Below, piece after piece: positions 4,164-12,677 of a DNA stretch of 13,378 bases; positions within the stretch are counted from its first letter, which is position 1, and each line of letters opens with the position of its first letter. Source of the stretch: Promethearchaeota archaeon (GTDB lineage: Archaea; Asgardarchaeota; Lokiarchaeia; Sigyniarchaeales; SOKP01); contig JBHLOC010000072.1 of assembly GCA_048940925.1 (NCBI GenBank), forward strand, positions 1 to 13,378. The letters are read 5' to 3'. Under the pieces are notes generated by a model, which had not been told where the DNA came from, did no database searches, and saw only the letters and a program-made list of their open reading frames with translations. The position numbers were made by a program, and so were the translations under genes.

Positions 4164-4457
4164 CTAAGGCAGACCTAACATTATTTTAAAGGCCGCTGTT
4201 TCGTCTGCTTCATCTACTGAAGAAATAGTAAAAGTTACATCATGTTTATCACGAATTTTTGGTGCCATTTGCGCCGAAATGAATTTCATTCTCGTAGATG
4301 TATTTTGACCTTCCCATACCCATATCTTTTTATTATGATAATCAACAAAGAGTAAAATTTTATTAGAATCTAGTAATTCAAAAAGTGGAACATTTTCTTT
4401 TATATCAATTTCATCAAAATCTCCTTTTTCTTCATTGAATTGATATCCTACTATCAT
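4164..4457 (-). CDS. Single-domain gelsolin/villin-repeat protein (Asgard ProGel/1DGel-like)
   Basis: 97 aa with gelsolin repeat pattern LDSNKILLFVD...IWVWEGQNTS..MKFISAQMA..IR...VDEADETAAF (L-D-x-x-x-x-(F/L)-x-x-D, IxxWxG, helix, G/DxExxxF). Confidence 0.8.
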   Translation of the reverse strand: MIVGYQFNEEKGDFDEIDIKENVPLFELLDSNKILLFVDYHNKKIWVWEGQNTSTRMKFISAQMAPKIRDKHDVTFTISSVDEADETAAFKIMLGLP

Positions 4458-5212: not shown

Positions 5213-6070
5213 CTAAGATAATCGAATAAAATCTTCAGATCTTTTTTTATTGAATTTATGCAATTTGAAAAAAGGATACTTTCCATCAGAACTAGGTCCT
5301 TTTTCTTTTACATATTTATTTATATTTTGCTGTAAAAATTTAATCAATCCCTCGATTACTTTTTTACACAATTTATTACATCCTAAAAAATTTTTATCTG
5401 TTAAATATTCACAGCTTTCATTGTATTTCTGACAAAATTTTTTAAGTTGTAGAGATAATCCTTCAGCTGACAAAATTTTAAAATTGTCCCAAGTATCTTT
5501 AAAACCTGCAATATAAGCAGGTTTGCTTGCTCTCAATGAACAAATTAAGCTATTTGTCTGTAGGCTATTAATTATACGCTTCGATATATTTTTTACTTCC
5601 CTTTTAGCCTCTAGCTGACAAAGAAAGACGTAATATTTCAGTAATTTCTCTGCTTCCTTAGTTTTCTTAGTATCAATTATTTTCCACCCATTTAGCTTCT
5701 TACAACTTAAAGGTTCATTATTAGGATTTGAGAACCTTGTAGGGTAAATCCAACATTGAGGTGGCTTAATTCCTGAAGCGTGAACAGTACAACCATTTAA
5801 ACTCTTATCAAATAAAAAGCACTTCCCTTTCTCTTCATCAAATCTTAGTGTAAAGCTAAAATTATCACTTCTAATGAAATCTTCTTTGTTAGCATAACCG
5901 CGTCTAATGTATTCTTCAGCCAATACTCTGGGGACATCAATCTTAATAGAACAGCAGTCACCATTGCAAACATTTAAGCAATTTGGACCTTCAATTGCTG
6001 ATCTCATTAAGATATTGAATTCTTTAACTAGATCCCAAAATTTCTCATTAACCACTTTATTTGTTATCAA
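5213..6070 (-). CDS. YkgJ/CxxCxxCC-family Cys-cluster (Fe-S/Zn) protein with C-terminal extension
   Basis: TTG start; CLNVCNGDCC, KCFLFD, GCTVH..KPPQCWIYP and a later SC match the YkgJ/FliB-like pattern; 14 Cys in total. Confidence 0.8.
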   Translation of the reverse strand: MITNKVVNEKFWDLVKEFNILMRSAIEGPNCLNVCNGDCCSIKIDVPRVLAEEYIRRGYANKEDFIRSDNFSFTLRFDEEKGKCFLFDKSLNGCTVHASGIKPPQCWIYPTRFSNPNNEPLSCKKLNGWKIIDTKKTKEAEKLLKYYVFLCQLEAKREVKNISKRIINSLQTNSLICSLRASKPAYIAGFKDTWDNFKILSAEGLSLQLKKFCQKYNESCEYLTDKNFLGCNKLCKKVIEGLIKFLQQNINKYVKEKGPSSDGKYPFFKLHKFNKKRSEDFIRLS

Positions 6071-6247: not shown

Positions 6248-8359
6248 ATGTCACAAAATCTTATAATTATTGATATTACCGATGAGGAGCACATAGTTCT
6301 TGACGGGTCTCAAAATTTAAAGGAAATAGCCGGTAATGGAAAAATAGTTGTGAAAAATCCAACACAAAGAAGCAGATTATGGAATTTATTATGTGATGTT
6401 AAAGAAAACGTGAATACATCCCTTGAATCTAAAGAATTAAATGTAGGTACATTAAATCCTGCTCAAGATTATAACAAAGAGTATGTAATTAGAGATCTGA
6501 AAGATTCGTCTTTGAAAATTGAGGAGATTTTTGATACAGATATATCAGATTCTGGGAAAATAAACAATACATTTCTCTATAAGACTGATAACAAATGTAG
6601 TTTAAAGCTAATAATAACAAATCCTTTGAACCTTCCCATTTTAGATATAAAAATTAAAAGGGATATGCCAGCATTTATTCAAGAAATTGAGACGAGAAAT
6701 CCTAGTAATGGAGATGCAAATATAAAAGAAGAGGAAGGGAAGAGAATGCTTATCTGGGATATAACCTCTCTAGATGCTAAAAATAAAGCAGAACTTGAGA
6801 TTTTCTTCACAGTTAATATAAAAGAATTAACCGCACAAGAACTTGGAGTTTTAAAAGTGAATTATCTAATTAACAATTATAAATTAACAATGATGAATCC
6901 CGAAGTTAGAGGACTTACAGATTCAATGAGTGGAATTGATAGAGATGAAGGTTCTCAACCGGGTATATGGGACTGTAATGTTGAATTTATTAATGAATCT
7001 GAAATGCAGGTAAAACTAGAAGATGTAAAAGTATCACAGACAATACCAACAGGAGTTGAAACAGTAGTTTCCCAAACACCTGATAAAATATTGAACCCTA
7101 ATGAATCATGGGATTTTGATTTTCAAGTTGAAGCGAAGGATGTGCCAGAGTTAAGTTCTGAAATTGGATTTACACCATTATTTGTATTGATTCCAAGAGT
7201 TGTTGGTGAAATTGTAAAAGAATCAACTACTTACACCGTATTAAGTGCTACTATTGATAAAGGGATAAATCCACCTGAAGTAGATGCTTATGCAAATACA
7301 AATATGACTATTTTAAATACTATTATAAATAATGGTTCCTCCGCTATCGAAAAGCTATTTTTATCAGATGAGCTTCCTCCTGATTTTATTCCCCCTTTAG
7401 TTAAAGATGTAAAAATTGTATTAGGAGATATGGAAATAAGTTCAAGGGAAGAATTCGTCCAGAAAATATTATTAGATCCTAGTGATCAAGATTTTTCTAA
7501 TAAACATCAAATTTATGTTGAATTATTTAATCTCTCGAATGAATTTCTTCCAGGAAAAAAGATGGAAATTTCATATCCTCTTCTAGCAAGAAATCCACGA
7601 CCTCCTACTGAAATAAAATATATGACTCCCGTGAAAATTGAGGTTAATAGTCCTGTAGAGGGTAAATCATTTGTTAGAACCCCTGATGAGGAACCAGAAC
7701 TTAAGATAAGATATGTCAAACGTAAACTAAAAACACTTAAAAGTATTAAACCGGGACTTACAGAAGGAGAGTTTAGTATTGGACTTAGAGTTCAAAATAA
7801 GGGAGATGTTGAATTAGAAAATGTATTGGTTAAAGATATCATTCCTTCCAGTTTTAGTTTAACAGAATTTACCCCTCCAGAAGGTGCAACTCACGAAGTA
7901 GTGCAAGAGGGTGATTTATCAGAATTACATGTAAAAATTCCTGAAATAAAAGGAGGTTCTTCCGTGAATATCAACTATAATTGCTCTGGTTCAGGAGGTT
8001 ATCACCGATCAGAACCAGTTGTTATTGTTTTAGGTAGGGGAGGAGGAGATTCATCAACCTTTCCAACAATATCTCCATCTAGTACAGAAACTCCAAAAGC
8101 ACATGTAGCAGATTCTCAAGCAGGAGTTATCCATGATATATTTATTGATTTGTTTAAAGCTCTTGATCGAGCTCCAACGAGTGAAGTTTTTGGAAGTTTA
8201 TTAGAAAGAAGAAGAGACGAATTTCCACCTGGACCGGTACTTCATCAAATCCTAGCATATGCTAAAGAACTAAAAGCTCTTGAAGAAAAAGTCATTGTCG
8301 GTTCATTATATGATGAAGTAATGAATAAATTAAAGGAATTTAAAAGCAAATATGAATAG
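6248..8359 (+). CDS. Multi-beta-sandwich protein: N-terminal mu-homology-domain-like region, two DUF11/Ig-like domains, low-complexity linker, C-terminal helical domain
   Basis: 703 aa, no signal peptide or TM segment. DUF11-type motifs (IINNGS..IE...SDELPPDF; VQNKGD..LENV.VKDIIP..F); G/S/T/P linker ~aa 596-624; amphipathic helices aa ~625-703. The ORF is certain, the domain labels are inferred. Confidence 0.6.
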   Translation: MSQNLIIIDITDEEHIVLDGSQNLKEIAGNGKIVVKNPTQRSRLWNLLCDVKENVNTSLESKELNVGTLNPAQDYNKEYVIRDLKDSSLKIEEIFDTDISDSGKINNTFLYKTDNKCSLKLIITNPLNLPILDIKIKRDMPAFIQEIETRNPSNGDANIKEEEGKRMLIWDITSLDAKNKAELEIFFTVNIKELTAQELGVLKVNYLINNYKLTMMNPEVRGLTDSMSGIDRDEGSQPGIWDCNVEFINESEMQVKLEDVKVSQTIPTGVETVVSQTPDKILNPNESWDFDFQVEAKDVPELSSEIGFTPLFVLIPRVVGEIVKESTTYTVLSATIDKGINPPEVDAYANTNMTILNTIINNGSSAIEKLFLSDELPPDFIPPLVKDVKIVLGDMEISSREEFVQKILLDPSDQDFSNKHQIYVELFNLSNEFLPGKKMEISYPLLARNPRPPTEIKYMTPVKIEVNSPVEGKSFVRTPDEEPELKIRYVKRKLKTLKSIKPGLTEGEFSIGLRVQNKGDVELENVLVKDIIPSSFSLTEFTPPEGATHEVVQEGDLSELHVKIPEIKGGSSVNINYNCSGSGGYHRSEPVVIVLGRGGGDSSTFPTISPSSTETPKAHVADSQAGVIHDIFIDLFKALDRAPTSEVFGSLLERRRDEFPPGPVLHQILAYAKELKALEEKVIVGSLYDEVMNKLKEFKSKYE

Positions 8360-8459: not shown

Positions 8460-8813
8460 TTATAGATATATATTTAGTTTGTCAACATCTTTTTGAATTC
8501 TTGAAATTCGCTTTTCTTGACCTTCTTCATCAAAACCTTGTATATCTTCTTCTAAAGTTAATTGTTCCTCTTCATATGCTTTTTCTATTTCCATTCCATA
8601 TCTCATAGCGAATGCCACTAGTTCTGGAATTAAAGAAATCATGGCTCTGAAACTAAAAATTCCAGATAAGATTGAAAGTCTGTTAATCATTTCACCAAAA
8701 GGATTTAGATCCATTTCAGGTTTTCTCATTATTTCCAATATCCTTTTAAATAACACTTCATAGAATAACTCCTGTTCTTCTTTACTTAAATTTTTTTCTT
8801 CCTCTTCCATCAT
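8460..8813 (-). CDS. Small acidic alpha-helical hypothetical protein with C-terminal HbYX motif (-IYL)
   Basis: 117 aa, ATG preceded by AAGGT, fills the gap between neighbours without overlap, Glu-rich termini, ends AAT ATA TAT CTA TAA. Confidence 0.7.
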   Translation of the reverse strand: MMEEEEKNLSKEEQELFYEVLFKRILEIMRKPEMDLNPFGEMINRLSILSGIFSFRAMISLIPELVAFAMRYGMEIEKAYEEEQLTLEEDIQGFDEEGQEKRISRIQKDVDKLNIYL

Positions 8814-11456: not shown

Positions 11457-12677
11457 CTATAAAGTTTTTATTCTAATTATTTCATTTTGAGTTATTTCTA
11501 AGAAGAGATTGATTTGTTCAATTTGCTTATTAATTATTTCTATCTTTTTATCTATAATTACCAAATCATTTAAAGGTGATTTTTCTAACTCTTTCCTTAC
11601 AATGTTATAAGATCGTATCTGATTTAGTATATTTTGCATTCTCTTAACTTTTATTGAAAATATTTTCTTAAATTTTTTGAGGTTGTTTATTTTATTTTCA
11701 GTATCATCAATGATTTCAATCCAATTTTGAATGTCTTCTTCATTTTTTAGATTTTTTATATTTTGCTCTATAATATTCAAGTTTGATAATATTTCATTAC
11801 GTTGAGTATCATCAATATCTTGAATTTCTCCTTGATGTTCTGAAGTTATCTTATCAAGAATTTCTGAGGTGTATTTAATATTTATCTTATTTCGAGAGAG
11901 ATTTGAAACTTCATTAATTACCTCTGAATCTTTTGTAACCTCCATCTCATCAATATCAGTGATTAATTCTAATTCATCTAACTCAACTTGAGTAATTAAC
12001 GGTGAAAACTTCACCTGTAGCTGTTTTTTCCCAAAGAATTCATTTTTTTGTCTAAGGATTTGGGTATAAATTTGAACAAATTCTGATCCAATCGGAGCAA
12101 ATAATACGCCACCATCCTCATCTAATTGTGTTAATAATGGATGAATTTTAGATTGTTCAATTGCTCCTGTTACTAAAATCTTCTGCCAAGGACTTAAATC
12201 AGACATTCCATATAACGGATTTTTAACGATTATTGAAATTTTATCATCTAAGTTCAATTCTTTTAAATTATTCGATGTTATTTTAGCAATTTCAGAGTTA
12301 GCCTCTAGAATGATTATTTCTCCTTTAGGTGCTAATTTATGCGCTAATGCTGCGATATAGCCACTCTTGGCCCCTAAAATCAACAAATCATCATCACTAT
12401 TTAGTGCTAGACCTTGTAGCATTATAGTAATCATATGTGGAGCTGAAATTGTCCGGTAATTTCTTGGATTTTGCTCATCAAAATAAAATAAGTTTGGAAC
12501 ATCCTCATAAAGTTTTAGTACATTCAAAAGTTTTTCAGGAATGAATTTCTCAAGAGGAATATCCATAAAAGCCTTAATTAATCTTTTATCTGTTAATATT
12601 TCATTTAAAATCAATGAGTCTAATAAACGTTTTTTTTTATTCCTCAGTCTTTCGCTATATCTGTCGTATTTGTCCAA
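11457..12677 (-). CDS. pcm: Protein-L-isoaspartate O-methyltransferase-like domain (atypical) fused to a long acidic/coiled-coil C-terminus
   Basis: TTG start; TISAPHM, LGAKSGYIAAL, QL..GGVLFAPIG, VKFSPL (aa ~227), then ~180 aa of charged heptad-like helix. Confidence 0.78.
   Translation of the reverse strand: MDKYDRYSERLRNKKKRLLDSLILNEILTDKRLIKAFMDIPLEKFIPEKLLNVLKLYEDVPNLFYFDEQNPRNYRTISAPHMITIMLQGLALNSDDDLLILGAKSGYIAALAHKLAPKGEIIILEANSEIAKITSNNLKELNLDDKISIIVKNPLYGMSDLSPWQKILVTGAIEQSKIHPLLTQLDEDGGVLFAPIGSEFVQIYTQILRQKNEFFGKKQLQVKFSPLITQVELDELELITDIDEMEVTKDSEVINEVSNLSRNKINIKYTSEILDKITSEHQGEIQDIDDTQRNEILSNLNIIEQNIKNLKNEEDIQNWIEIIDDTENKINNLKKFKKIFSIKVKRMQNILNQIRSYNIVRKELEKSPLNDLVIIDKKIEIINKQIEQINLFLEITQNEIIRIKTL

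Follow-up and report, generated by a model that had tools for sequence, protein, structure and literature searches.

The 13,378-nt contig JBHLOC010000072.1 (assembly GCA_048940925.1) of a Promethearchaeota archaeon, referred to here as the window, contains a gene (6248..8359) that encodes a protein of 703 aa, P0001. The first ~335 residues of P0001 appear to be a genuine mu-homology domain (MHD) in a soluble cytoplasmic protein, for which the role of a stand-alone adaptor or scaffold is inferred. The probability of this reading is put at roughly three in four. MHDs are the cargo- and partner-binding modules of adaptor protein (AP), COPI, TSET, muniscin, and stonin proteins. Homology with the MHDs of AP-1 to AP-4 mu, COPI delta, and the muniscins is most likely, because the evidence from sequence profiles and the evidence from structure prediction agree. 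An earlier interpretation made from the DNA letters and their translations (the sequence-only reading) had proposed an archaeal MHD of AP-mu/delta-COP type at 6248-7240. This proposal is supported by profiles and by a high-confidence model aligned end to end with solved MHDs, but the gene runs to 8359 and the protein has 703 aa, not 331. The start codon is the ATG at 6248 and residue 331 ends at nt 7240, so the proposed span covers the first 331 codons, the N-terminal 47% of a 703-codon open reading frame (ORF). The five peptides quoted in that reading are all present in the protein, at aa 6-37, 131-141, 168-187, 202-214, and 321-331. The gene and the predicted parts of its product are as follows, with the basis of each in brackets.

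6248..8359, + strand: MHD-family gene for P0001, a putatively cytosolic 703-aa protein of several beta-sandwiches (ORF list and translation)
6248..6583, + strand: predicted MHD subdomain A, N-terminal part, aa 1-112 (AlphaFold2 (AF2) model; the VIA alignment starts with model residue 1 against mu2 residue 168)
6584..6883, + strand: predicted MHD subdomain B, aa 113-212, a DUF11-type immunoglobulin (Ig) sandwich nested in A that carries W170 (PF00928, profile A3, hhalign)
6884..6952, + strand: predicted stretch in which the chain first runs back to subdomain A, aa 213-235 (model strands 219-223 and 226-234)
6953..7180, + strand: predicted Ig-like insert, aa 236-311, absent from eukaryotic MHDs (six extra model strands at 240-310)
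7181..7252, + strand: predicted final MHD hairpin, back to subdomain A, aa 312-335 (model strands 312-324 and 328-332)
7268..7717, + strand: middle region with a DUF11-like Ig domain, aa 341-490 (hhalign; outside the modelled part)
7718..8047, + strand: C-terminal DUF11/CLIPPER domain, aa 491-600 (PF01345 at aa 509-579)
8048..8131, + strand: variable linker rich in Gly, Ser, and Thr, aa 601-628 (most gapped and least conserved stretch of alignment A1)
8132..8356, + strand: C-terminal domain of ~75 aa, aa 629-703, with a PPGP-LHQ motif kept in close orthologues (alignments A1 and A5)

The sequence evidence is centred on subdomain B. Residues 118-213 of P0001 match positions 128-225 of the Pfam profile PF00928 (Adap_comp_sub) with an E of 8.6e-5 and 22.4 bits, and the same profile was found in 7 of 21 orthologues. 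When the N-terminal region of 88 diverse family members was scanned, 30 matched at E <= 1e-3, the best at 4.9e-11. Two of the ten full-length relatives scanned, P0154 (40.9 bits) and P0164 (34.4 bits), exceed the PF00928 gathering cut-off of 31.6 bits. The match in P0154 covers profile positions 12-236 and thus reaches into subdomain A. A family profile (A3) was built from the 88 sequences and searched against 177,635 distinct PDB sequences. There were 21 matches at E <= 10, and 20 of these were AP-3 or AP-2 mu chains, the best with an E of 0.0015. Profile positions 116-221 were aligned with residues 290-396 of mu3A and 301-402 of mu2. The conserved Trp strand of subdomain B (L-x-W-x-I/V) is present in P0001. 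Its W170 is invariant in the 88 sequences, and HMMER pairs it with the conserved Trp of the mu subunits, as in mu3A.

The predicted structure points the same way. A first AF2 model was made from a shallow alignment. It had a predicted local distance difference test score (pLDDT) of 63 and was poor in the region of the insert, and it has been superseded, yet the top 50 PDB matches that Foldseek returned for it were all MHDs. The model made from the 88-sequence alignment (340 residues) has a pLDDT of 96.9 and a predicted template modelling score (pTM) of 0.88. With this model the Foldseek top 50 were again all MHDs, and when 48,161 representative chains were compared exhaustively by VIA-align, ten MHDs came first. 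Model residues 1-326 were aligned with mu2 residues 168-435, the last being the final residue of mu2, and 228 of the 252 mu2 residues were covered. Across the solved MHDs, 212-230 of the 340 model residues were aligned, and ~110 have no counterpart in eukaryotic MHDs. In a fold search of the ESM Atlas, eukaryotic AP-mu clusters were matched at TM 0.58-0.62. The fold and architecture are thus predicted with high confidence. The model appears to consist of two sandwiches, with B nested in A and a C-terminal return to A. A row of independent tandem Ig domains, which the sequence-only reading had named as the arrangement that would overturn it, does not appear to be what the model holds. Subdomain topology and domain boundaries were taken from alignment ranges, aligned lengths, and the list of strands.

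Strands of subdomain A are predicted at 6-18, 24-36, 44-50, 63-69, 74-81, 90-96, and 108-111. Following subdomain B, the HMMER alignment reaches mu3A residue 396, which lies past that subdomain, and the strands at 219-223 and 226-234 probably belong to subdomain A. The sequence-only reading had recognized an extra Ig-like domain at about aa 225-310 and had placed it in the final hairpin. Six extra strands are indeed predicted at 240-310. They fall between the strand that HMMER aligns to the 'LKVxxLD' strand of mu3A and the final hairpin, so the insert would lie before this hairpin and not within it. The best-conserved positions of the whole family, judged from the 88 sequences, are in or near the insert: E234, P238, W241, C243, F247, N249, S251, W288, and P300. 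The insert thus characterizes the archaeal domain and probably has a function in it.

Several observations weigh against an MHD that is homologous to those of eukaryotes. P0001 itself remains below the PF00928 gathering cut-off (22.4 against 31.6 bits). Searches of the PDB with the single sequences of P0001 and its relative P0154 returned no MHD, and the similarity must therefore be remote and mostly carried by subdomain B. A profile from 21 close orthologues likewise found no MHD in the PDB. Significant sequence similarity is confined to subdomain B, which itself resembles DUF11, and Pfam DUF11 matches the MHD region in more family members (41 of 88) than PF00928 does (30 of 88). Identity to solved MHDs is just 8-13%. 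The nesting of B in A was deduced from aligned ranges and predicted strands rather than from coordinates, and no informative neighbour of the window gene is conserved. Finally, the MHD region is acidic, with an isoelectric point of about 4.7, and mu2 has a basic lipid-binding face. Lipid binding by electrostatic attraction of the mu2 kind is disfavoured for this reason.

The resemblance to DUF11 raises the possibility that the likeness to coat proteins is one of analogy. P0001 would then be an array of DUF11/CARDB-type Ig domains, two of which are packed in the manner of an MHD, with no evolutionary or functional link to coats. The C-terminal domain does match PF01345 above its cut-off of 24.6 bits (aa 509-579, E 1.3e-9, 38.9 bits), and PF01345 was found in each of 21 orthologues. 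The segment of a family alignment that holds this domain (aa 491-600) was compared by hhalign with other segments. Subdomain B (aa 113-212) gave a probability of 97.1% (E 7e-11), the middle region (aa 341-490) gave 96.5% (E 1e-9), and the insert (aa 236-311) showed a weak likeness at 85%. The sequence-only reading had anticipated that DUF11 domains share part of the pattern, and subdomain B is itself DUF11-like. In P0154 the DUF11 match corresponds to subdomain B. Membership of PF01345, however, applies to the C-terminal domain only. The PF00928 matches of relatives extend into subdomain A, and the profile search of the PDB yields mu subunits and not Ig proteins. DUF11 proteins of the usual kind form repeat arrays that are secreted or bound to the cell surface. 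P0001, in contrast, has no export signal, and its relatives have cytoplasmic fusion partners. It also appears to have one DUF11-like unit nested in another sandwich, which gives the MHD arrangement. An explanation by analogy is considered improbable.

P0001 is probably a soluble, cytoplasmic protein. A Kyte-Doolittle scan in windows of 19 residues found no transmembrane helix and no signal peptide, in agreement with the sequence-only reading. The hydropathy maximum is 1.44 and lies within a beta-strand region, and the mean of the first 30 residues is -0.08. A cytoplasmic location is also backed by the polyproline, HEAT, and NACHT-like NTPase modules that occur in fusions among its relatives. 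Beyond the DUF11 domain and the linker, the C-terminal tail of ~75 aa is helical by its composition, as far as can be judged. This helical tail is restricted to forms of ~700 aa, and other members have a zinc-ribbon tail or none. A homodimer prediction for it returned a score of 0.00 ('no answer'), which weighs neither way. A language-model atlas search with aa 336-703 gave no clusters other than that of the protein itself and those of DUF11.

The nearest homologues of P0001 belong to Promethearchaeota/Lokiarchaeia metagenome-assembled genomes. A total of 260 homologues were found. Among the best 120 of these, most have 703 aa and are 56-85% identical, and every one that is named in its source is called 'hypothetical'. 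A profile search of 1.84 billion cluster representatives gave 210 clusters, 147 of them at E <= 1e-10. The core of the family consists of the MHD with its insert, then an Ig domain, then DUF11, and the ends vary. There can be no extension, a module of ~80 aa, long polyproline repeats, a HEAT repeat, or a NACHT-like NTPase, and the C-terminus has a helical tail or a zinc ribbon or is bare.

The sequence-only reading had also called for the distribution of the family among Asgard archaea. When all six reading frames were searched with the family profile, the domain turned up in 252 of the 301 genomes of the phylum that were sampled. Among high-quality genomes it is present in 77 of 90, and among genera in 65 of 70. 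The family is thus near-universal in Asgard archaea and not sparse, as it appears with Pfam alone. It is not restricted to them. A Thermoplasmatota cluster was matched in the ESM Atlas fold search (TM 0.83, 327 aligned residues), and 181 loci were found for relatives with polyproline heads. The best 80 of these 181 are almost all from Poseidoniales (Marine Group II). An assignment of the polyproline-headed relatives to Heimdall-type archaea was considered and rejected, since the genome scan places them in Poseidoniales. The family is therefore present in Marine Group II archaea, which weakens it as a strictly Asgard-eukaryote signature.

Individual relatives show a number of unusual forms. P0177 (1343 aa) is fused to a NACHT-like P-loop NTPase, and the protein at L018:8652-10865 has an N-terminal HEAT repeat (PF13646, 57 bits). 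P0190, P0230, and P0248 are Marine Group II forms with polyproline heads of 100-380 aa. In P0127, P0129, and P0136, which are forms of ~690 aa, a C-terminal zinc ribbon with four Cys replaces the helical tail. On a 665-kb European Nucleotide Archive contig, a polyproline-headed MHD protein of 1185 aa (L009:8001-11558) is encoded between a GPN-type ATP_bind_1 gene and a gene for an EMC3/TMCO1-type insertase. The relatives of this protein map to Poseidoniales genomes.

The family itself is already known. The C-terminal domain of mu was found in most Asgard phyla, sparsely distributed and without any fusion to Clat_adaptor_s, and each of the five AP domain types occurs unfused in these archaea (Eme et al., 2023; Nature 618:992, PMC10307638). 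Supplementary Table 3 of the same study lists 44 'Adap_comp_sub PF00928' candidate eukaryotic signature proteins, identified by Pfam/InterPro hits. Lokiarchaeales proteins in this table share the motifs of P0001, and the sequence of one agrees with that of P0070 over the ~400 residues compared. Over 703 aa, P0070 and P0001 are 77% identical, which makes P0001 an orthologue of the listed family. A 330-aa form from Jordarchaeia with the same insert motif is also in the table. The architecture is therefore not novel, as the sequence-only reading had held it to be. A search of the literature that pairs Asgard archaea with mu-homology found nothing beyond Eme et al. (2023). That study gives no structure, domain map, or gene context, whereas here the fold was compared with solved MHDs and the distribution was determined by profile. 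The domain call is published, and the value of the present analysis is in confirmation and detail, not discovery. What is added is support from a predicted structure, a domain map, a hypothesis for a DUF11 origin of subdomain B, and a corrected distribution.

Comparison with eukaryotic systems shows both likenesses and differences. The mu subunits of AP complexes (mu2 9fiw_M and 2xa7_M, mu1, mu3A 4ikn, and mu4 4mdr) share with P0001 the conserved Trp strand of subdomain B. In contrast to these subunits, P0001 has its MHD at the N-terminus and not the C-terminus, no longin domain, an Ig-like insert of ~75 aa, an acidic MHD, and three further domains after it. The MHD of the COPI delta subunit (4o8q, bovine; 5fjw, yeast) was also compared. 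Delta-COP has an upstream longin domain and a linker and binds motifs of the WxW type. The MHDs of muniscins (FCHo1/2, SGIP1 5awr, and yeast Syp1 3g9h) resemble that of P0001 in that they also lack a longin domain, and flexible or proline-rich linkers connect them with other modules. The relatives from Marine Group II, which carry long polyproline heads ahead of the MHD, add to this likeness. The muniscin MHD, however, is C-terminal and is paired with an F-BAR or other membrane-binding module, and P0001 has no such module.

P0001 is probably not a subunit of an AP/COPI-type heterotetramer, and it is not a medium subunit in the strict sense, as it has no longin domain. A Pfam scan of the protein found no longin domain (PF01217) and the MHD starts at residue 1, as the sequence-only reading had noted. 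Its stand-alone status also rests on the lack of a PF01217 match in the genome and of a neighbour that is conserved beyond the taxonomic family; no operon partner of the orthogroup was found with wider conservation. It could instead be a split proto-adaptor, the medium subunit of an AP/COPI-like complex that sorts membrane cargo and draws its longin (sigma-like) and HEAT (large-subunit-like) parts from genes elsewhere. The unfused occurrence of the five AP domain types in Asgard archaea would fit this proposal, as would the N-terminal HEAT repeat of one relative. HEAT-repeat ORFs over the PF01602 cut-off are also present in the source genome. These Adaptin_N matches were considered as large subunits and rejected, because they are generic HEAT repeats and Methanosarcina, a methanogen control, matches as well. 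PF01217 was not found in the source genome at E <= 0.001, which is weak evidence as the control genomes gave no match either. The proposal is also weakened by the lack of a conserved neighbour of the window gene, by the members of the family in Marine Group II archaea, and by the position of the MHD, which stands at the N-terminus ahead of three Ig domains. There is only a small chance that a split complex of this kind is correct.

Indirect support for P0001 as an adaptor comes from two paralogues in the same genome. Each is 22-24% identical to P0001 and has no helical tail. The first (671 aa; G000:C86:54247-56262, - strand, equivalent to L011:7248-9263) is inside a chemotaxis operon. The order of genes is CheW, CheY, CheA, the MHD paralogue, a 279-aa protein of unknown function, and a CheC/CheW/CheX fusion, and 37-70 nt separate adjacent genes. 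The paralogue is a fixed member of this operon at 17 loci. Twenty relatives of this paralogue (>= 36% identical, from at least nine genera) have the expected che-cluster gene on every flank that was reached. The cheA gene is upstream in 15 loci, and the genes for the 279-aa protein and the CheC/CheW/CheX fusion are downstream in 16. The second paralogue (724 aa, with a poly-Glu insert; contig C57, L010:9903-12077, - strand) is 217 nt upstream of a gene for a 578-aa beta-propeller protein that resembles BBS7/BBS2/ITFG2 (L010:7949-9685, - strand; PF23743, 65.5 bits). An orthologue of the second paralogue in another family (L015) has a propeller gene of this kind within 1.5 kb, on the opposite strand. 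These contexts fit adaptors that are plugged into different systems, and for the window gene they are not direct evidence. By analogy with the che paralogue, P0001 might be a signalling scaffold that connects a sensory or regulatory complex with an output, for example the cytoskeleton, and not a part of membrane traffic; despite the placement of that paralogue between cheA and the CheC/CheW/CheX gene at 17 loci across at least nine genera and the NACHT-like NTPase fusion in one relative, this is very improbable, as the window gene is outside any such operon, its neighbours are unrelated housekeeping genes, and the che paralogue is only 22-23% identical to it and lacks the helical tail.

The preferred reading remains that of a genuine MHD in a protein that would act as a stand-alone cytosolic adaptor or scaffold. 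The chain would form sandwich A, then the nested DUF11-type sandwich B, and would then return to A. The resulting platform, perhaps with the conserved insert, could recognize short peptide motifs in partner proteins, and through the variable terminal modules this binding may be coupled to different cellular systems. P0001 is soluble, as far as its sequence indicates, and well conserved across Lokiarchaeia, which would make a search for its partners practical if a cultured strain has an orthologue.

The origin of the MHD bears on how vesicle coats arose, and a concrete hypothesis can be offered for the assembly of the fold from DUF11-type Ig units. The MHD may be an archaeal invention in which a DUF11-type Ig domain became nested in another beta-sandwich. 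The stand-alone family of Asgard and Marine Group II archaea, with its Ig insert, would be the ancestral form, and eukaryotes would have fused a longin domain to it. The main Asgard orthogroup, including the window gene, would already have been an adaptor for cargo or membrane proteins. Taken as a whole, this scenario is speculative and rather unlikely.

The P0001 gene is apparently monocistronic. It is separated by 177 nt from a divergent gene for a CxxCxxCC protein (5213-6070). The window has a G+C content of about 25-33%, and its other genes include those for NurA, a UvrD-type helicase, a PCMT-type methyltransferase, and a rhomboid-like protein. Synteny of the neighbours of the P0001 gene is restricted to close Lokiarchaeia. 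In two other Asgard families, a gene of ~230 aa for a protein with a metallo-beta-lactamase fold (PF13483) precedes the orthologue on the same strand (L012:10379-11068 and L014:10488-11186). This gene is conserved in those two families and is absent from the window.

Three other ORFs of the window have features of their own. A small acidic ORF of 117 aa (8460-8813, - strand) converges on the MHD gene and has no Pfam match. A copy that is 88% identical is present in a close relative, but none lies at the corresponding place in the locus of an orthologue that is 58% identical. An ORF of 97 aa (4164-4457, - strand) was termed gelsolin-like in an earlier note and has no Pfam match at E <= 0.01. 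Weak similarity (25%, E 1e-5) links it to an ORF of 184 aa (L011:3709-4263) in the che operon of contig C86. The PCMT-family methyltransferase (11457-12677, - strand) has 406 aa. Its Pfam domain stops at residue 230, and it is followed by an unexplained tail of ~175 aa that is rich in Ile, Asn, Lys, and Glu.

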